The translations under genes were made by a program, and so were the position numbers. A stretch of 16,516 bases of DNA from Parcubacteria group bacterium CG08_land_8_20_14_0_20_48_21 (GTDB taxonomy: Bacteria; Patescibacteriota; Patescibacteriia; UBA1544), in contig PEYJ01000041.1 of assembly GCA_002774425.1 (NCBI GenBank), forward strand, positions 1-16,516, in the 5' to 3' direction. Positions 2,537-16,500 of this stretch are shown piece by piece (position 1 is the stretch's first letter; each line of letters begins with the position of its first letter). Under the pieces are notes generated by a model that did not search any database, had not been told where the DNA came from, and saw nothing but the letters and a program-made list of their open reading frames with translations.

Positions 2537-3679
2537 ATGAACATTTTAATTCTCGTCGTAGTGGCGGTTTCGTACGTCTATGCAGCTCTTTTGTTGCTGC
2601 GGATAATGGGCAGATTTAACTTTTTCGTTACCCTTGTTCCTGAAGGGTACGCGAAAGCCATTGTGAGTGCTGAAGGTATGGAGCGGATGGTCATGCAGTG
2701 GGAAGGTCATACGTTTCACGGGAAGGTAAATAAAGCTCTTATCCCCCAATCCCCCCTCTCATACTGGAATGTAGTTGAAGATAAAAGGGCGAATAGAACA
2801 AGGAGTGTGTGGAGGATGGTGTTGAGTCAGTTAGGATTGAGGGGATTACGATGGGTGGGCATCCCCGGAGTTGTCAGTGTGTACACGTACAAATTCCGGT
2901 GGACTTCTCTGTTCCAGCAGGCAAATTTGCCGGAAGGAAAAGTAGTTACCCCACACGAAAAAAAGAGAATGGACAGGATCATTCTCAAGCCGGATGTGTA
3001 CTACATTCGGCTACCAAGCGTTGAGGACCGAAATCTCATTCCCTTAGATTTGGACATTCTGTTAACTGTGCGTATTACCAACCCATGTCTGGCACTGTTT
3101 TTCGTGCAAGAGTGGTTGGAAATGATTACAAACAGGATTCTCCCAGCGTACCGCCGTTCCATTGGTACGAAGGAGTGGAAGATGCTGCAGGGTCAACTTG
3201 GAGATATGAGCGTTCGTGGCGGGACGCCCTCACCGCTTGCCACGGATCTTGCGGAAACTATACAGGAGCTGCTGCAACAATTCGGAACCGAAATTGTTGC
3301 AGCAGAACTTATTGATATCACCCCCGGGGGTGATCGTAAGTTAGAGTTGCTCGCGGCATCCACCGCGGAGTGGGAGGCGACACAGCAAGCGAATGCTGCG
3401 GTAGAGAAGGCGCGTGGAGATGCAGCCCATGTCACAACGGTCTATCATGCCATCCAAGAGATGGGTGATGTGGGGTTGCAGGTGCGCGCCTTGGAAGCCC
3501 TCGAGGCAGCGGGTGCCAAGGAAGGAAACTGGATAATCCCGCTGGGTGGGTTGGGCGATCTGGCAACGCGTCTCGTTGGGCAGAAACGTGCAAAATCTTT
3601 GCTGGACGAGATTATCGCGCTCACCTCTGATGAGCGCGATAATTTGCTGAAACTTCTAAGAAAGGATGATAAATCATGA
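2537..3679 (+). CDS. SPFH/band-7 (prohibitin/HflK/stomatin-like) membrane protein.
   Basis: N-terminal TM, the VPEGYAKAIV motif, DLDILLTVRITNP, AELIDITP, an Ala/Glu-rich coiled coil and the C-terminal NWIIPLGG motif typical of HflC/prohibitin tails. An atypical insertion of about 80 aa lies in the N-terminal half. Confidence 0.55.
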   Translation: MNILILVVVAVSYVYAALLLLRIMGRFNFFVTLVPEGYAKAIVSAEGMERMVMQWEGHTFHGKVNKALIPQSPLSYWNVVEDKRANRTRSVWRMVLSQLGLRGLRWVGIPGVVSVYTYKFRWTSLFQQANLPEGKVVTPHEKKRMDRIILKPDVYYIRLPSVEDRNLIPLDLDILLTVRITNPCLALFFVQEWLEMITNRILPAYRRSIGTKEWKMLQGQLGDMSVRGGTPSPLATDLAETIQELLQQFGTEIVAAELIDITPGGDRKLELLAASTAEWEATQQANAAVEKARGDAAHVTTVYHAIQEMGDVGLQVRALEALEAAGAKEGNWIIPLGGLGDLATRLVGQKRAKSLLDEIIALTSDERDNLLKLLRKDDKS

Positions 3680-4395
3680 AAGAATTTTTTCATGAATACT
3701 GGCAAGTTCTGCCGGTGCTAATCATCATTTTAGCACCAGTATTGATCGCCATTGCGGATAGCATTCGCGAGGCGGAAGAACCACCGCAGGGTAAAGATAG
3801 GAAGAGCAAAGTGGAGAGGGTAAAGGCGCAGATAGAAAAATGGAAGGAAGGAGCATTCGCCGCGCCTTTGTTGTGGTACGCAACGTTCCTATGCGTACTG
3901 CTGCTCGCATTTCCGGAGAAGTTCAAGTTGTGGTATGGAAAAGATCCATTGCCACAACCCTCCTTTCTCTCTTTTCAGGTCTGCGTAGTTCTGATCGCGC
4001 TCACCTCAAAAGGGAAGGAATGGGCGCGGAAGTTCTTCATGTACGCCGCTATACTCCTGTTGCCCGTAGTACTTGTCGCGGGTAGCAGTCCTTTTCAGGA
4101 TGAAGATGAGGAGGATGAAAAAGAAGTTACCCGCTCTGCGCAACAGGCAGAGCGGATGGTCTGGAAGATGTATCCGGAAGCCAGACCAAAAGTTGGGGAA
4201 AGGTGGAAAGTCCACAATCCCCATGTATACCCCATCCATGTCAGGATGGGAGTGTACCCGATTGGCACGCCTCAAGTACCCCCGGGCGAGGACTGGTTCC
4301 TCAACATAACCCGGGCGTGCGGAACACCTCCCTTTTATGTGCTACTGAAGGAAGGGGACGAGGTAACCAGTGTAACCATTGCACTGGTTAAGTAG
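3676..4395 (+). CDS. Four-TM membrane protein with an acidic linker and a small C-terminal beta domain, possibly an NfeD-like partner of the SPFH protein.
   Basis: Its start overlaps the SPFH stop (ATGA at 3676-3679). Four hydrophobic helices, a DEDEEDE linker, and the C-terminal ...PPGEDWFLN...LKEGDEVTSVTIALVK, which resembles the NfeD OB-fold tail. The operon position fits the known SPFH-NfeD pairing. Confidence 0.4.
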   Translation: MKEFFHEYWQVLPVLIIILAPVLIAIADSIREAEEPPQGKDRKSKVERVKAQIEKWKEGAFAAPLLWYATFLCVLLLAFPEKFKLWYGKDPLPQPSFLSFQVCVVLIALTSKGKEWARKFFMYAAILLLPVVLVAGSSPFQDEDEEDEKEVTRSAQQAERMVWKMYPEARPKVGERWKVHNPHVYPIHVRMGVYPIGTPQVPPGEDWFLNITRACGTPPFYVLLKEGDEVTSVTIALVK

Positions 4396-4893: not shown

Positions 4894-4922
4894 TAGACAA
4901 AAATCATGCCACGTGCTATACT
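4894..4922 (+). promoter_or_regulatory. Sigma70-like promoter, TAGACA-17-TATACT.
   Basis: TAGACA at 4894-4899, a 17-nt spacer, TATACT at 4917-4922. The downstream A-rich region of about 215 nt contains no ORF before 5144. Confidence 0.4.
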
Positions 4923-5143
4923 GCTTGCAGAAGTCAAAAAAACAGGCTTCAAAAATACAAAAATAAAAAAATATGCAAAAACAAAATATATTCTTGCCGA
5001 AAGGCAAGGTGAATACGCACCCTATCAAAGGTCTTGCACGCCGACTTTTTATAAAAGGATGGCGCCAGAGTAATGCGATAAAAGCAAAACCTTTGTTTTG
5101 CCGATCTGATTTATTTTCACCAACCGCTGCCGGGAAGAGGTAA

Positions 5144-5476
5144 GTGGTTTTTTGTTGTATGGAATTTGACGCTTTACAACCGCATGATATAATGATCACC
5201 AGAATCGCCTTTTTTCTTGGGGTTTTGGAGTATACCGAAGGGCTACGGGAGCTATGGATGCAAACGGCGCTTAAAATGTCTGAAGAAGCAAAAACATCTT
5301 TTGCGCACATGCTGGAAGAACTGTTCATTTTACAGCTGATCGATCGTGTTCCCGAAGAACATCAGGACTATATTATTGCCCGCAAACAAGAAGAATTACA
5401 CGAACAGCAGGAAATAACCGTGCAAACGCAGGTTATCATGCAACTGGAGAGACTTGCGCCAAAACTTGCTTCATAA
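5144..5476 (+). CDS. Small hypothetical protein of about 95-110 aa. Start uncertain: GTG 5144, ATG 5159 or ATG 5192.
   Basis: Open frame ending 16 nt before the large ORF. Predicted helical and acidic (…MSEEAKTSFAHMLEELFILQLIDRVPEEHQDYIIARKQEELHEQQEI…). No family recognised. The internal TTGACG-16-TATAAT (5166-5193) could mean the true start is downstream. Confidence 0.35.
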   Translation: MVFCCMEFDALQPHDIMITRIAFFLGVLEYTEGLRELWMQTALKMSEEAKTSFAHMLEELFILQLIDRVPEEHQDYIIARKQEELHEQQEITVQTQVIMQLERLAPKLAS

Positions 5477-5492
5477 CTTTTAATCATTTTTT

Positions 5493-8400
5493 ATGGCAGA
5501 ACAACAAAAACCTACATCCGAGGAGATGGGTGAAAAATCACAAAACAATAAGGAGTTTTTTCAAGAGCTCCACTCACTCGAAGAAATGTTTGATAGTTTA
5601 GATGCTGATGCTGATGCCGAAAATATTGACCTATTATTAAAAGATTTGGTAGAGAAAGCGGGTAATCAAGGTATATACCTTACTGATCAAGAAGATAATG
5701 AACTCCTCCGTGTGCAAAATAAAATAGCAGCTCGAACAACAGTAAGCGGCGCACTTACGGAAGGATTGAATGAAGTAACTCATAAGGATGTAGCTGTTTC
5801 TGATGATGCATGGCCCGGCAATAGCTTAGGGGAGGCCCTAGCACAGGAGCTGAAAAAAACTAGAAAAATGCGCGCAACATCAAAAATTGATGACCAAGGG
5901 GAACAACCAGAATTCATTGAAGGCATAGAAAGTACTCATGCAACGGAAAATAAAGAAGAAAAATTTCCTGAAAATTTTGCAGATAAGCTTACTGAATTGA
6001 ATGAGCTTTGTGTCAACCGTACTTCTTCTGTTGATGCTATGGATTTATATACTGACACGCAACGTATGTATGCGAGCATGACTCCTGAAGGAAGGGGTAA
6101 AAGGACAAAATATAAGACAGAGGATTTTGCACGTAGAGTTCAGGCATGTAAAAAAGATACGAAAAATTGGAAGCCTGAAGATTTTATAAAACTTCTCGCA
6201 AAGCACTATACAGCCGCAACATCGGTATATGAACAGCAACAGAGTGAAGAAAAGAGCAATGGCGACGTAACCAGCACACCACATGATGTTGCAGAAGCGA
6301 CTGAACCAATTATAGCCAGGGAAGGAGTCGGTGCAGTAAGTTCGGCTTTAGAAACATCATCTACAATAATATCTTCGGAAAACGTTTTGAAAGAGGATCA
6401 TCCAGAGGCTGCTACTCCGACAAATGATGGAGTAGAAAGTTCTGCAGAGCCGATAGGACTTAACGTAATACCGGATATTGAGCCAAAAGAGCTTTCTGGT
6501 TATCGTGAGGAGATGCTGGTAAGTTTATCGCGTACCATAGATAGGCATGGTGAGGTGCTTGCGGAGGCTGATGAGGCAGTTAAACAATACAAACGCGAAC
6601 AGGCTGCGGAAATTATTTTGCAAACCAACCCAGCATTGCGGAGGCTTGCACAAGAAGACAACAATAATTTTGCCGTGTTGGTAAAAGAATTTTCCGATGC
6701 GTTCAGCAAGGATTCAGCATATGCCGATGAACGGCAGGAATTTGACGTTGCAGGACACAAGGTATATTTGGATGACCAAATGTATGTTGCGGCACTTGGT
6801 CAGGTACGCCAGCGCGAATTTGCTGCCCAAGTGTATGGAAATCGCCATCTTTGGCAGATATTGAAAGAACTTCCCGGCAATCTCTCTACCAAGGAAATTC
6901 CCGATGTGGAAGCCGAGGTACAATCTCGGCAGAGCAAGCGCATGAAGAAAGGAAAAAAAGCTGGACACTATGCCACTACCGCAAAAGTACAAAAAATGCA
7001 GCACGAGCTGCTGGCAGCGGAAACTGCTGATGCCATGGTGGTTCTCGCCAAAGAAGATGTGGCGGCACACGCATTGGACACTGTATTGGATGAGCGGATA
7101 CGCTTTGAAGATATTCGGGCAAAGAACAGCAAGCTGGACAGTGCAACCATAAATTTTTTGCGGGACAATAAGACATCACTACGGCTTGGCGGGGTAGTGG
7201 TGGCTGCCGGGCTTGGCGCTGCAAGCGGCGGACTCTTGGCGGGAGCGGTTGCGGGCGGCGTGCGCATTGCGCATATGAGTGTCGGCATGGCCGCCGGTGG
7301 CGGTTCCAAAAAATTGTTGGACTGGGTTGAAGATAAATGGCTAAAGGAACGCGATGCAGAAAGAGCGCAAGCGATTATAGATAAAGCAAGAACCGAAATA
7401 AGCGGCATCATCCGTGAGTTTGGCGCTGATCAGAAAAATGTGGAAGACGCGCATACTCAAGAAGAAAAAGCCGCGGCATTGCAAAAGCGTCAACAGACAC
7501 GTAACAGTCTGACAAAAGCGTTTGCCGCCGCGCAGCATAAACTCTCCATAGAAGATGCACGTAAACTGCACCGCGAAATAGGTGAAACACTCGCGGCTTC
7601 TACTGCGGGCATAGTTATGGGGATGCAAGCGGGGGCATTTGTGGATCAATTTTTCCCGCAAGCTCCGGAAGATCCCGCAATACCTACCTCTGCACCAGAT
7701 TCTGTAATGCCGGAAACTGTGTCCGGTGAAACGACCGCACCGCATGAGGCTATAGCGCCTGAAGTCGCGCCAATGGAAACGGGTCCTGTGGCAAGTCCGG
7801 TTGAACAAACATCAAGCACCGTTCAAACAGCTCAAGCTATGCACGAAACTACAGAAGATTCTCCTGTGTCCGGTGAAACGACCGCACCGCATGAGGCTAT
7901 AGCGCCTGAAGTCGCGCCAATGGAAACGGTGCAGTGGTTTGGTGAGGGAAATACCGTATGGGCGCAAGCGGATCATGTTCTCAAACAAGGTGCCTTTGAT
8001 AATTTAATAAAAGTTGCACGCGCTTCGGGAGTGGATATGGATGAGGTGCATACATTCAATGACTTAACACCGGCACAGCAAACCTATATCATAGATTGGC
8101 TGAAGGACATGGTGGTGGCACATCCGGAAAATTTTGGCTTGCAAGCGGGAGCTGACGTGGAGCATGGATTTTCCAAGAGCATGCATCTGGATTTCACGAA
8201 TGCATTGGAAGACCAAGGCGCAAATATTATGGCGCACATGCAGAAACTCTCACTGGACCAGCTTGCGAACATTCAGCACAATTTGGATATTGCACACCGG
8301 GCGGTAAGCGCGGGCATTCACTCTACATCGGAAAATCTGGGTCATCTTCTTGGCAATAACACTATGGAAGCATGGGTGGTAACGGGCGGTACCGAGGTAA

Positions 8401-8981
8401 CGCAAGAACATTTTACGGCACTTGCCGCCTTACAGCAGAGTGGCATGATCACGGCTGATCAGTTTGCTCATTTAACGTCCGAGCAAATCAATAACTATCT
8501 GGCATTTACGGATGCGCATCAGGGATTAGCGGCGAGCCAGGAAAACATTGTGGCAATACTCAACGGTCAGGGCGATATCGCGCAGCATGTGGCGGAACAT
8601 GCATCCTCTGCCGCCGTATCACCTCTGGAAAATGTTGAGGAGGTGCAGGTTTTCAAACCCGAAATTGAGAAGGTGGTAAGAGAAGCCATGCGACCAAAGC
8701 GTTGGTGGAATATCCCGGGAAAGGCGTTGGACAGGGTGAGTGGTGATTGGGAGCATAATTGGCAATTCTTTAAAGATCAGAACGTAGATGACCTATTGAA
8801 GAATCGGATAACTGGCCACGCGGGAGAATACGGTATACTTGAGGGTATGCACAAACGTGCGCTTCGGGAATTTATACATGTTGCATTGGGAAAAGGCATC
8901 ATACAACCTACTGACAGTGGAACTCCGATGAAGGTCGGCGAAGCTATCCGGCAGATTGCGATCTATAATAGAACTCACTAA
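5493..8981 (+). CDS. Large (1162 aa) hypothetical protein with an acidic low-complexity N-terminal half, two Gly-zipper-like hydrophobic segments separated by a coiled coil, a Pro/Thr/Glu-rich repeat linker and a C-terminal globular region of about 350 aa.
   Basis: Long uninterrupted frame and no N-terminal signal peptide. Hydrophobic segments are LRLGGVVVAAGLGAASGGLLAGAVAGGVRIAHMSVGMAAGGG and AGIVMGMQAGAFV. Contains the tandem peptide SGETTAPHEAIAPEVAPMET twice. No known domain recognised. Confidence 0.7.
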   Translation: MAEQQKPTSEEMGEKSQNNKEFFQELHSLEEMFDSLDADADAENIDLLLKDLVEKAGNQGIYLTDQEDNELLRVQNKIAARTTVSGALTEGLNEVTHKDVAVSDDAWPGNSLGEALAQELKKTRKMRATSKIDDQGEQPEFIEGIESTHATENKEEKFPENFADKLTELNELCVNRTSSVDAMDLYTDTQRMYASMTPEGRGKRTKYKTEDFARRVQACKKDTKNWKPEDFIKLLAKHYTAATSVYEQQQSEEKSNGDVTSTPHDVAEATEPIIAREGVGAVSSALETSSTIISSENVLKEDHPEAATPTNDGVESSAEPIGLNVIPDIEPKELSGYREEMLVSLSRTIDRHGEVLAEADEAVKQYKREQAAEIILQTNPALRRLAQEDNNNFAVLVKEFSDAFSKDSAYADERQEFDVAGHKVYLDDQMYVAALGQVRQREFAAQVYGNRHLWQILKELPGNLSTKEIPDVEAEVQSRQSKRMKKGKKAGHYATTAKVQKMQHELLAAETADAMVVLAKEDVAAHALDTVLDERIRFEDIRAKNSKLDSATINFLRDNKTSLRLGGVVVAAGLGAASGGLLAGAVAGGVRIAHMSVGMAAGGGSKKLLDWVEDKWLKERDAERAQAIIDKARTEISGIIREFGADQKNVEDAHTQEEKAAALQKRQQTRNSLTKAFAAAQHKLSIEDARKLHREIGETLAASTAGIVMGMQAGAFVDQFFPQAPEDPAIPTSAPDSVMPETVSGETTAPHEAIAPEVAPMETGPVASPVEQTSSTVQTAQAMHETTEDSPVSGETTAPHEAIAPEVAPMETVQWFGEGNTVWAQADHVLKQGAFDNLIKVARASGVDMDEVHTFNDLTPAQQTYIIDWLKDMVVAHPENFGLQAGADVEHGFSKSMHLDFTNALEDQGANIMAHMQKLSLDQLANIQHNLDIAHRAVSAGIHSTSENLGHLLGNNTMEAWVVTGGTEVTQEHFTALAALQQSGMITADQFAHLTSEQINNYLAFTDAHQGLAASQENIVAILNGQGDIAQHVAEHASSAAVSPLENVEEVQVFKPEIEKVVREAMRPKRWWNIPGKALDRVSGDWEHNWQFFKDQNVDDLLKNRITGHAGEYGILEGMHKRALREFIHVALGKGIIQPTDSGTPMKVGEAIRQIAIYNRTH
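7717..7781 (+). repeat. Copy 1 of a perfect 65-bp in-frame direct repeat inside the large ORF.
   Basis: ctgtgtccggtgaaacgaccgcaccgcatgaggctatagcgcctgaagtcgcgccaatggaaacgg, identical to 7864-7928. Confidence 0.85.
7864..7928 (+). repeat. Copy 2 of the 65-bp direct repeat (offset 147 bp, which is 49 codons).
   Basis: Identical to 7717-7781. Confidence 0.85.
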
Positions 8982-8991
8982 TTTTTTTCCT

Positions 8992-9315
8992 ATGCCAGCT
9001 ACCACTCCACGCAGCCAAATTACTCATTTCTTCAAGATTCTTGGCTTTGATTATTTGCAGGATGTGAAGAAAAAGGACTTAGTCAAAAAAATGGGTGAAC
9101 TTACCTACATGCGTTTTATGGTACGTATCTACGACAAGCTGTCGGCTGGAGAGCGCAAAGAGCTTACCGCGCTTTTCAAGAAAGATGCAAAGTGCGACAG
9201 GATAGCTCAATTTCTCTACATGCATATTTCTGATGTGGATAGGGTTTTGGCGGATGTCGTATTTGGCGTTCAGACTGATGTAAAAAACGATTTGGCATAT
9301 ATAACAAAAATCTAA
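8992..9315 (+). CDS. Small hypothetical protein of about 107 aa. The track ORF starts at 8956 and overlaps the large ORF; ATG 8992 is more likely.
   Basis: Open frame 11 nt after the large-ORF stop. Helical and Lys-rich (…FFKILGFDYLQDVKKKDLVKKMGELTYMRFMVRIYDKLSAGERKELTALFKKDAK…). Followed by a strong terminator. Confidence 0.45.
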   Translation: MPATTPRSQITHFFKILGFDYLQDVKKKDLVKKMGELTYMRFMVRIYDKLSAGERKELTALFKKDAKCDRIAQFLYMHISDVDRVLADVVFGVQTDVKNDLAYITKI

Positions 9316-9336
9316 ACAAACACTATGGGATGAAGA

Positions 9337-9376
9337 AAATAAAACCCCCGCCCTAAAGGGCGGGGGTTTTATTTTG
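9337..9376. terminator. Bidirectional intrinsic terminator between the + strand small ORF and the convergent rplT.
   Basis: aaaacccccgccc-taaa-gggcgggggtttt: a perfect 13-bp stem flanked by an A-run and a T-run. Confidence 0.8.
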
Positions 9377-10636: not shown

Positions 10637-10714
10637 TATCTTGAAACATGAAAGTTAAAACCTGCCATAAACACGTTCTGCTTTCCGACCGCCTATCTCT
10701 TTACTGGCTGAACT

Positions 10715-11124
10715 GGTGGAGATGGTGGGAATCGAACCCACGTCTAGTAAGCATGATGCGAAGAGCCACTACATCTTATAGCCTGCCGTAGGTGCGTACG
10801 CTGTCGGCGGCAGACAACCTTGGCGGCGTACGAGTGCCTCTTATAAGTTTCGGATATTGCCTAAGAAGCCGAAGACCGTATCCTACATCGGGAATATGAC
10901 ACTCTGTTTCTCAACCCCGATAGTTAGAGGAGAGCGGCTCAAGCGATATTACGCGAAAGCTGGCGCAAAGTTCGGCATTGCAAAGCTATGCGCAAATGCA
11001 GTCCGTACTCTGCTGGCAAATGATTTTGCACTTATGAAGATGAAGCATGAGATTGACAAGCGTTGCTTCACGCTTGAAGATGCGCTTTTCGCAAAAAAAC
11101 TTCCTATCAAATCCGATCATCCCC
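10715..11124 (-). ncRNA. ssrA: tmRNA (SsrA), about 410 nt.
   Basis: The 3' end GUGGGUUCGAUUCCCACCAUCUCCACCA is a tRNA-like T-arm plus acceptor with CCA. A complementary 5' end GGGGAUGAUCGGAUUUGAUAGGAAGUUUUUUUGCGAAAAGC, found 410 nt away, aligns with E. coli GGGGCUGAUUCUGGAUUCGACGGGAUUUGCGAAACC and gives a G3:U70 pair. An internal tag reading frame ...GCA AUG CCG AAC UUU GCG CCA GCU UUC GCG UAA encodes …NFAPAFA-stop. smpB is immediately upstream. Confidence 0.75.
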
Positions 11125-11179: not shown

Positions 11180-11701
11180 TCAAGGAAGCGGGTTTTTTAA
11201 CGTGTTTGCAATGTGCCGTTTAACCTCTCTTTCCCGAATGGTGCGGCGCTTGTCGTACTTCTTTTTTCCCCGCGCTAAACCAAACGAAAGTTTCACAAGA
11301 GCGTGATGAGTATACACCTTTAAGGGTATCATTGTCAACCCCTTTTGGGAGAGCTTGCCGGTCAAGGATGTTATTTCTTTCTTTTGGAGCAAGAGTTTGC
11401 GCGATCGTGTCGGATTATAGGAGAGGTCTGTGCCGGCCGGTTTGTACCGTGCAATATGGGCATTAAGTAAATAAGGTTCCCATACGGTTTGCATCATGTG
11501 CTGCGAGCTATGCGGCGCGACTTTCTTTTTTCGCTTCATCCCCTTGGACGTGTGTTTGAAGATAACGTACGCTTCGGCGATCTTCATGCCGCCGTTCTTT
11601 GTGGATTTTACCTCGTGTCCCTCCAATACCAATCCCGCCTCGAAGGTTTCCAGGATCTCATACTCATATGATGCGCGTTTATTGAGTGCGAGTGTAGGCA
11701 T
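11180..11701 (-). CDS. smpB: SsrA-binding protein SmpB. The track ORF extends to 11782; Met at 11701 (MPTLALNKRASYEYE…) is the more likely start.
   Basis: …YEYEILETFEAGLVLEGHEVKSTKNGGMKIAEAYV…LLNAHIARYKPAG…YNPTRSRKLLLQKKEITSLTGKLSQKGLTMIPLKVYTHHALVKLSFGLARGKKKYDKRRTIREREVKR… is strongly SmpB-like. Confidence 0.85.
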   Translation of the reverse strand: MPTLALNKRASYEYEILETFEAGLVLEGHEVKSTKNGGMKIAEAYVIFKHTSKGMKRKKKVAPHSSQHMMQTVWEPYLLNAHIARYKPAGTDLSYNPTRSRKLLLQKKEITSLTGKLSQKGLTMIPLKVYTHHALVKLSFGLARGKKKYDKRRTIREREVKRHIANTLKNPLP

Positions 11702-11747
11702 AAAAAAGAGTACGAAATAAGAAATAAGGGAATGACTTCTGCATTTC

Positions 11748-11776
11748 TTGCTTTTTATAGTCTCTTGTCGTATACT
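11748..11776 (+). promoter_or_regulatory. Sigma70-like promoter, TTGCTT-17-TATACT, for the AI-2E transporter gene.
   Basis: TTGCTT at 11748-11753, a 17-nt spacer, TATACT at 11771-11776. This argues against the track start at 11748 and for a start at ATG 11823 or 11877. Confidence 0.4.
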
Positions 11777-11876
11777 AGACACACCATATCATATAAGGTT
11801 TTTTACGCAATATCCGCTATTTATGTTTGGAAAAAATACGCCGTCAGTGAATATCCAAATTTCCAATGTTACGCTC

Positions 11877-16206: not shown

Positions 16207-16283
16207 TGGTTGCGGGGGAGGGATTTGAACCCTCGACCTTCTGGTTATGAGCCAGACGAGCTGCCAGACTGCTCTACCCCGCG
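16207..16283 (-). tRNA. Initiator tRNA-fMet (anticodon CAT), CCA encoded.
   Basis: Reverse complement CGCGGGGTAGAGCAGTCTGGCAGCTCGTCTGGCTCATAACCAGAAGGTCGAGGGTTCAAATCCCTCCCCCGCAACCA. Has the C1 x A72 mismatch and is close to E. coli tRNAfMet throughout. Confidence 0.9.

Positions 16284-16424: not shown

Positions 16425-16500
<76 letters not shown>

Follow-up and report, generated by a model that had tools for sequence, protein, structure and literature searches.

The window analysed here is a 16,516-nucleotide (nt) stretch of chromosome from Parcubacteria group bacterium CG08_land_8_20_14_0_20_48_21 (contig PEYJ01000041.1), and the locus under study encodes a 1162-amino-acid (aa) membrane protein flanked by two small open reading frames (ORFs), ORF1 and ORF3. 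We found that this large protein has a modular architecture whose core recurs in many Patescibacteria lineages, that it is paired with a protein of the DUF5663 family, encoded here by ORF3, and that it lies in a conserved operon. The large protein is outside every described family and its pairing with DUF5663 is absent from the searchable literature; a preliminary description of the locus, made from the letters of the sequence, had presented it as an undescribed system, and in this it was right. As to the cellular role of the complex, we infer, tentatively and at less than even confidence, that the locus may encode a Patescibacteria-specific membrane scaffold that spans the envelope, held to the wall on its outer side and bound within the cell by a cytoplasmic DUF5663 adaptor; this is the explanation we favour.

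A Patescibacteria membrane protein family and its DUF5663 partner

On the evidence of its ortholog, the large gene (5493–8981, + strand) is real and under selection: P0004, a 1279-aa protein encoded at locus L004, is 44% identical to its product (E 7.6e-200), with conservation concentrated in residues 335–720 and 815–975. When HMMER was run exhaustively against 1.84 billion representative proteins, it found nine matches in total, among them this ortholog, six weak matches on query residues ~850–990 and one on residues 1004–1155. A word-indexed protein search returned near-identical strains only, two profile runs were nearly empty, and a metagenome scan recovered only the same organism. The large protein had no match in Pfam, NCBIfam, PHROGs, PADLOC or PDB sequences, and for none of the three locus proteins did Pfam, PHROGs, NCBIfam or PADLOC give a significant match.

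The preliminary description had seen no recognisable family in the C-terminal part of the protein; no database family was indeed found, but the protein is not an orphan. Its most widely shared part is a conserved domain at residues 813–963 (7929–8381, +), which we call the outer domain after its predicted position. A scan of one genome per GTDB species, with the conserved C-terminal motif as query, yielded 29 loci, every one from Patescibacteria lineages, and a local hidden Markov model (HMM) search placed the outer domain in proteins of 550–1590 aa at 34 distinct loci, from Saccharibacteria, Doudna-, Niyogi-, Lipton-, Jorgensen-, Moranii-, Portnoy- and Yonathbacteria, Paceibacterota and others. 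The members share a layout, in which a hydrophobic segment of 28–60 aa (about half Gly, Ala, Ser or Thr) is followed by a spacer of mostly 45–215 aa (15–20 aa in some members), a second hydrophobic segment, a net-acidic and often Pro-rich linker, and the conserved domain. Because only ~130 residues and the membrane architecture are conserved, family-clustering methods miss the large protein. Four of the loci (L009, L010, L022 and L027) are labelled "uncultured Gammaproteobacteria" yet carry the Patescibacteria-specific pair or family; mistakes in binning or taxonomy probably account for these labels.

In 27 of the 34 loci, all 27 being Patescibacteria assemblies, the large gene has a DUF5663 gene as its immediate neighbour on the same strand; this gene mostly begins 2–90 nt downstream and lies upstream in seven. 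The Pfam model PF18908 was matched by 20 of 23 partners, and a Pfam DUF5663 protein is encoded directly after P0007. In the window, ORF3 (8992–9315, +; 107 aa, 57% identical to its L004 counterpart) is a divergent member of this family: against an HMM made from 25 partners outside its own lineage it reaches 56.8 bits (E 2.4e-16, positions 10–99 of 103). Like the family it is ~100 aa long, but it is too divergent for the Pfam model, below which it falls on its own, while the L004 ortholog matches at E 0.027. Read from the sequence, ORF3 has no hydrophobic stretch and no signal peptide. The linkage of the two small ORFs in relatives, to which the preliminary description had attached weight, thus differs between them: it was recovered for ORF3/DUF5663, while ORF1 is confined to this lineage. 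Neither DUF5663 nor its pairing with the large protein appears in any main text of the searchable literature.

DUF5663 is a core, Patescibacteria-enriched family (families of Meheust et al., as used in PMC10633639). In Southlakia epibionticum (S. epibionticum), SEML1_0161 is a 767-aa hypothetical protein whose size and adjacency would fit the large-protein family; 14 nt on lies SEML1_0162, followed by SEML1_0163, both of them DUF5663 proteins (Wang et al. 2023, PMC10633639). Transposon sequencing (Tn-seq) classed SEML1_0161 and SEML1_0162 as GD/ES/ES, that is, essential, and SEML1_0163 as NE/GD/GD (PMC10633639, Tables S1 and S2). Both DUF5663 proteins are flagged there as core and Patescibacteria-enriched, and the structure-based annotation of the same study gave SEML1_0163 fold matches of Spy/CpxP-like and trigger-factor-C-like type (PMC10633639). 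The essentiality of SEML1_0161 and SEML1_0162 gives a lead in favour of the scaffold.

Patescibacteria account for much of bacterial diversity, and for the majority of the essential genes specific to their lineages no function is known. The locus ties DUF5663, which is Patescibacteria-enriched and essential in the one system with genome-wide Tn-seq, to a specific partner, a fast-evolving membrane protein overlooked by family clustering. It thereby offers a two-protein module for which a topology is predicted, which includes a candidate domain for binding the wall and which is recurrently linked to a coupling ATPase.

A kinship of DUF5663 with GpsB/DivIVA or with Protein A was considered and rejected, the PDB profile matches being short-motif or coiled-coil artefacts. 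The resemblance to GpsB/DivIVA adaptors is an analogy only: each is a small protein (~100 aa) of the cytoplasm and could attach to the cytoplasmic parts of envelope proteins, but the DUF5663 profile matches to GpsB were weak (E 0.018–0.16) and covered only a coiled-coil-like stretch, and the DivIVA signature was not recovered.

Membrane architecture and the outer domain

The large protein has no signal peptide when its sequence is read directly, in agreement with the preliminary description. Its N-terminal region (residues 1–559, 5493–7169, +), delimited by composition and predicted to be cytoplasmic, had been described as acidic and of low complexity; it is acidic, the first 400 aa holding 80 Asp+Glu vs 46 Lys+Arg, but residues 335–560 are strongly conserved with the ortholog. 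The N-terminal 560 aa are common only to the window protein and the ortholog of L004, where residues 335–559 are well conserved. The two Gly-rich hydrophobic segments quoted earlier are present as written. The first, rich in Gly and Ala (residues 560–604, 7170–7304, +; Kyte-Doolittle maximum 1.9), was modelled by AlphaFold2 as two helices, 560–577 and 584–594, with a low predicted local distance difference test (pLDDT) score; the second (residues 699–721, 7587–7655, +; hydropathy 1.34) would form a third membrane segment and is present in most relatives. The stretch between them (residues 605–698, 7305–7586, +), predicted to be a cytoplasmic long helix or coiled coil, came out of AlphaFold2 as a single continuous helix of ~100 residues (606–707, pLDDT <50), much as the preliminary description had it.

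Beyond the third membrane segment lies an acidic Pro/Thr/Glu linker (residues 722–812, 7656–7928, +), predicted to be outside the membrane and disordered in the model, with 0 Lys+Arg, 16 Asp+Glu and 15 Pro. The repeats that had been noted in it are perfect 66-nt direct repeats (7717–7782 and 7864–7929, 147 nt spacing). In one strain the protein (P0002, locus L001) is missing precisely the 49 aa that separate the two repeat copies, and the length of the linker therefore varies by recombination. The protein ends in a helical module (residues 1040–1162, 8610–8978, +), which is common to P0004 and to an unrelated large protein, P0005 (1589 aa), where its motif (W.F.K...DLL...I.GH.G...LEG.H...L...I) lies at residues ~1200–1290. 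P0005 has no match to the conserved outer domain, and the module therefore moves between large CPR (candidate phyla radiation) proteins. Loci L002 and L003, from assemblies of two other samples, carry a 2-nt deletion at ~8695–8700 (codon ~1069, CGACCAAAGCG to CGACCAGCG) that splits off the final 94 aa as an 81-aa ORF of its own; the deletion is either a true polymorphism or an assembly error shared by the two.

Hydropathy and charge suggest a topology with the N-terminus inside, a two-helix hairpin, a cytoplasmic helix, a third pass and the C-terminal domain outside, as would be expected of a resident membrane protein. The first hydrophobic segment is preceded by the 560 residues of the acidic region. 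Counted over the family, Lys/Arg-rich stretches flank the first segment and open the last one, and the linker beyond the last membrane segment is net acidic in nearly all members. At the two ends of helix 605–698 of the window protein the ratios of Lys/Arg to Asp/Glu are 5:4 and 4:3, and its predicted cytoplasmic placement is due mainly to the strongly acidic linker past the third membrane segment.

The preliminary description had likened the Gly-rich segments to colicin-like hairpins or glycine-zipper pore modules and had suggested a toxin accompanied by a chaperone and an immunity protein. According to this account, the large protein would act as a pore-forming toxin that is secreted or inserts into membranes, by means of glycine-zipper hairpins. 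A literal GxxxGxxxG does occur in the Gly-rich hydrophobic hairpin (G580/G584/G588), a motif that alone is not diagnostic; small ORFs described as helical lie on both sides of the large gene, strain-level indels affect the linker and the C-terminus, and for one S. epibionticum DUF5663 protein the published annotation gives matches to chaperone-like folds. Against this, no pore-former or glycine-zipper family was found in Pfam (at E up to 1), PADLOC, PHROGs, NCBIfam or PDB sequences, and colicin, toxin and defence models likewise gave no match. A secretion signal is absent; the hairpin is placed in the middle of the protein, as an anchor that a phylum-wide chromosomal family conserves; the neighbours are housekeeping genes with conserved synteny; ORF1 is not conserved beyond this lineage; DUF5663 is core and reported as essential, not conditionally needed; and no variable C-terminal domain of polymorphic-toxin style with a matching immunity gene was seen. 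We consider a toxin locus very improbable, and abandon the pore module and the toxin, chaperone and immunity arrangement together. In view of the chaperone-like fold matches annotated for one S. epibionticum DUF5663 protein, a loosely chaperone-like role of the small partner may still be entertained.

The outer domain carries the signature G-D/N-T/S-V-W ... KTY-L/I-ID-x-I/L-KD ... P..FGL ... IDF, the family consensus being (hydrophobic)ETA.KGDSVWK(M/I)A ... KTYLIDAIKDKIA.NP..FGL ... L.VGQKIDF. Structure models were built on alignments of 9–13 sequences. The model of residues 806–1162, from 13 sequences, is all helical with a mean pLDDT of 78, and residues 813–963 reach 75–93; a second model places an isolated beta-bridge between residues 816 and 900, exactly at the GDSVW and VGQ.IDF motifs. 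Pfam LysM matches were obtained in 4 of 32 outer domains, one above the curated cut-off (23.5 vs 20.9 bits) and the rest below it, and each is a half-domain, in which profile positions 2–16 fall on the GDSVW motif or positions 28–42 on the VGQ.IDF motif. When a LysM profile made from neighbouring M23 peptidases was aligned with the family by hhalign, the alignment ran over the full LysM length with an insertion (P 9.8e-4, probability 22%). The order of motifs is that of LysM (PF01476), with a strand and GD(S/T)(V/L)W..(I/M)A first and L.VGQ.I.(F/P) last; unlike in LysM, the halves are ~45 aa apart, ~25–30 aa beyond the 43-aa LysM, and enclose conserved KTYLIDAIKD...P..FGL helices. The likeness to LysM is thereby split and of weak to moderate strength; whether the outer domain is a LysM-derived module with inserted helices is, in our judgement, an evenly balanced call. 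TALE-repeat matches of the outer-domain profile were rejected, as no single stretch was significant.

Proposed role of the complex and its alternatives

In the scaffold that we favour, the large protein would insert with its N-terminus in the cytoplasm, residues 560–604 forming a helical hairpin within the membrane, the ~100-residue helix remaining cytoplasmic and residues 699–721 crossing the membrane. The acidic Pro/Thr/Glu stalk would then carry the conserved domain of ~130–150 aa outside the cell, where, as a putative LysM module split by helices, it may bind a glycan of the envelope, peptidoglycan or another. On the cytoplasmic side, the long helix and the acidic, variable N-terminal region would together offer a docking surface. 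Soluble DUF5663 (ORF3) probably docks there, serving as adaptor or assembly factor, and ORF1 and a 56-aa basic protein encoded upstream of it may do likewise in this lineage. Such a complex would be a housekeeping component of the envelope, serving cell-wall or division organisation or the docking of envelope machines, and not a toxin. If true, a wall-tethered scaffold of this kind would help explain how minimal cells organise their envelope or host contact site.

The FimV/HubP/TspA hub proteins combine a LysM-type wall-binding domain outside the cell, a membrane anchor and a long, acidic, poorly conserved cytoplasmic docking region. The large protein resembles them in that its outer LysM-type domain would likewise be joined through a membrane anchor to an acidic, poorly conserved cytoplasmic docking region, but it differs in several respects. 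Its order is reversed, with the N-terminus predicted to be cytoplasmic and the LysM-like domain C-terminal; it has three predicted membrane passes including the Gly/Ala hairpin, whereas FimV has one; its LysM-like module is split by helices; and it comes with a DUF5663 partner. No FimV C-terminal motif, TPR, FimV-related Pfam or NCBIfam match or sequence homology was found in the large protein.

Several points weigh against the scaffold explanation. All of its steps are predictions. The membrane and helix region was modelled at pLDDT <50, and the predicted hairpin and topology therefore draw on hydropathy and charge alone. The LysM matches of the family are halves, mostly below the curated cut-off; the large protein of the window has no Pfam LysM match, and the outer domain has no fold match in the PDB, including at fold level to LysM structures. 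The proposed binding of DUF5663 to the large protein follows from gene adjacency only, and the adjacent DUF5663 gene is missing in 7 of the 34 loci. Finally, the essential SEML1_0161 is only a candidate homologue of the large protein.

The same parts could instead make up a transmembrane sensor or regulator, whose outer domain would detect a signal from the envelope or the host, with the helix as relay and DUF5663 as effector, for example in the control of a peptidoglycan hydrolase, as with FtsEX and EnvC or PcsB. A domain outside, a membrane segment, a long helix and a domain in the cytoplasm make a typical signalling layout, and an M23 peptidase adjoins the large gene in 7 loci. We nevertheless think a sensor quite improbable, since no kinase, HAMP, anti-sigma, cyclase or ATPase domain was found and the cytoplasmic N-terminal region is unconserved across the family, which is unusual for an output domain.

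The genes that surround the pair at other loci bear on a further alternative. The order large gene, DUF5663, a ~150-aa protein (c3) and a ~800-aa TraD/VirD4/HerA-like ATPase recurs in nine loci (L014, L015, L016, L017, L026, L028, L030, L033 and L037, downstream of DUF5663), and in a tenth (L025) the ATPase is directly upstream. The ATPase has an N-terminal membrane segment and matches DUF87 (2.5e-8), the T4SS (type IV secretion system) family T4SS-DNA_transf (7.3e-5), TraD (1.3e-12), CedD and TrwB; the c3 protein ends in LD.FHD.LVD.L. This recurrent cluster may be the usual home of orphan coupling-protein genes in Patescibacteria. Besides, the M23 peptidases of the 7 loci mentioned above are of LysM-LysM-M23 type, and PMT-type glycosyltransferases adjoin the large gene in 4. 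As neighbours related to the envelope, the peptidases, the glycosyltransferases and the small protein with its ATPase also speak for the scaffold. Neither the ATPase nor c3, the M23 peptidase or the glycosyltransferase neighbours the locus in the window or at L004; T4SS-like genes occur among the neighbours only in other loci.

From this cluster it could be supposed that an orphan TraD/VirD4-like coupling ATPase is the centre of an envelope machine that translocates DNA or protein, and that the large protein and DUF5663 are accessories of it, the large protein being a membrane and wall anchor or conduit and DUF5663 and c3 cytoplasmic adaptors. The recurrence of the cluster and the family matches of its ATPase speak for such a machine, as do the LysM-M23 peptidases, which were counted as VirB1-like in PMC12102498, and a T4SS-pilin-like gene that lies 3.3 kb upstream of the locus in the window. 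A recent survey moreover counted 5,713 VirD4-like genes in Patescibacteria, of which just 148 lay close to virB4 and thousands far from it; it suggested another function while leaving the role open (Quinonero-Coronel et al. 2025, PMC12102498). On the other hand, ~24 of the 34 loci have no ATPase neighbour; neither a coupling ATPase nor a c3 gene lies near the locus in the window or L004; the three locus proteins have no Pfam or NCBIfam match to known T4SS subunits; and the coupling-protein homologue of S. epibionticum was reported as non-essential (PMC12102498), whereas the candidate pair is essential. An accessory role in translocation is the main rival of the scaffold, though we rate it unlikely. 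We are similarly doubtful of a bolder version, according to which the large protein and DUF5663 would form the core of an unrecognised, essential, Patescibacteria-specific envelope apparatus, often accompanied by c3 and an orphan VirD4/TraD-like ATPase, tethered to the wall by the split LysM and moving DNA or proteins or organising the contact pole. The Pam pilus system of CPR bacteria (bioRxiv 10.64898/2026.03.03.709456) was also considered and rejected, its Ig-like pilins being unrelated to this helical protein.

Transcription unit and genomic setting

The locus is kept as a unit by the 44% identical ortholog, whose contig shows the order Band_7, small membrane protein, ORF1, large gene, ORF3 and convergent rplT, together with a counterpart of the promoter-like site and of the terminator; the genes thus form a conserved unit, which supports the single unit supposed in the preliminary description. 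It had placed a strong promoter with an A-rich leader upstream, of which a conserved site remains: TAGACA-17-TGcTATACT (4894–4922, +; consensus scan), ~237 nt 5' of ORF1, corresponds to TGGACA-17-TGcTATAAT at L004, ~240 nt 5' of ORF1 there, and its extended −10 block is conserved in the alignment; a promoter function is predicted for it. The best consensus match, TTGACG-16-TGnTATAAT (11/12, 5166–5193, +), lies within the 5' end of ORF1; it was rejected as the operon promoter since it sits inside conserved coding sequence, and may have arisen by chance or may serve the large gene as an internal promoter.

The supposed A-rich leader is in fact coding. It contains a basic small ORF of 56 aa (4973–5143, +), found in this lineage only, with 33 of 56 residues (59%) identical to L004 2607–2777, 13 Lys+Arg vs 1 Asp+Glu, and a stop codon that abuts GTG 5144. 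Relative to L004, synonymous codon differences amount to 14/37 in its frame vs 4/41 and 3/37 in the other frames. It had no Pfam match and resembles no known family. The leader stretch is conserved because it encodes this protein; a structured RNA was rejected, as Rfam gave nothing in the leader and the conservation is accounted for by the coding small ORF.

ORF1 (5159–5476, +) encodes an acidic protein of 105 aa, called helical in the preliminary description and 56% identical to L004 2790–3104. Its HMM matched only the window strain and L004, and a descent from DUF5663 by duplication or a relation to c3 was rejected (hhalign probabilities 0.6%, 2.6% and 0.1%, of which 2.6% refers to DUF5663 and 0.1% to the c3 family). 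Both small flanking ORFs are present as announced, but comparison with the ortholog locus (56% and 57% identity) fixed the true starts at ATG 5159 for ORF1 and ATG 8992 for ORF3, where 5144 and 8956 had been given. Downstream, the perfect terminator of the preliminary description was recovered as a two-way intrinsic terminator (9336–9375, both strands), a perfect 19-nt inverted repeat flanked by A-runs and T-runs and common to the locus and rplT, with a hairpin at the equivalent position in L004. The retention of promoter-like site and terminator in L004 would fit a single operon, consistent with the scaffold explanation, and the transcription unit probably comprises four genes, closed by the terminator common to rplT.

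The window is a chromosome stretch of housekeeping content. Its 5' part holds the end of ftsK, lgt, a T4SS-pilin-like gene (PF18895), an SPFH/Band_7 gene, a small membrane protein gene and tRNA-Asp, followed by the locus; 3' of it lie convergent rplT, rpmI and infC, then tmRNA, smpB, a permease gene, glyS and an M16 peptidase gene. The same arrangement is found on three near-identical strain contigs (DNA identity 99.8–99.98%). The T4SS-pilin-like protein (131 aa, 1808–2203, +; PF18895 E 7.6e-9), whose gene is the one 3.3 kb upstream of the locus, belongs to the VirB2-like pilins that are common in Patescibacteria. The SPFH/Band_7 gene and the small protein gene that follows it (2537–4395, +) form a pair that is kept in L004 (215–1644) and may be a variant of the SPFH-NfeD type; the small protein has a conserved C-terminal domain of ~80 aa (MV.K.YP..RPK.GERW.VHN ... 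GTPPFYV). The tmRNA gene (tag peptide AKSFASRVRTAFAHSFAMPNFAPAFA) directly adjoins smpB (10714–11124, −, and 11180–11782, −), and two tRNA-Met genes, at 16207–16283 and 16425–16500, point away from each other.

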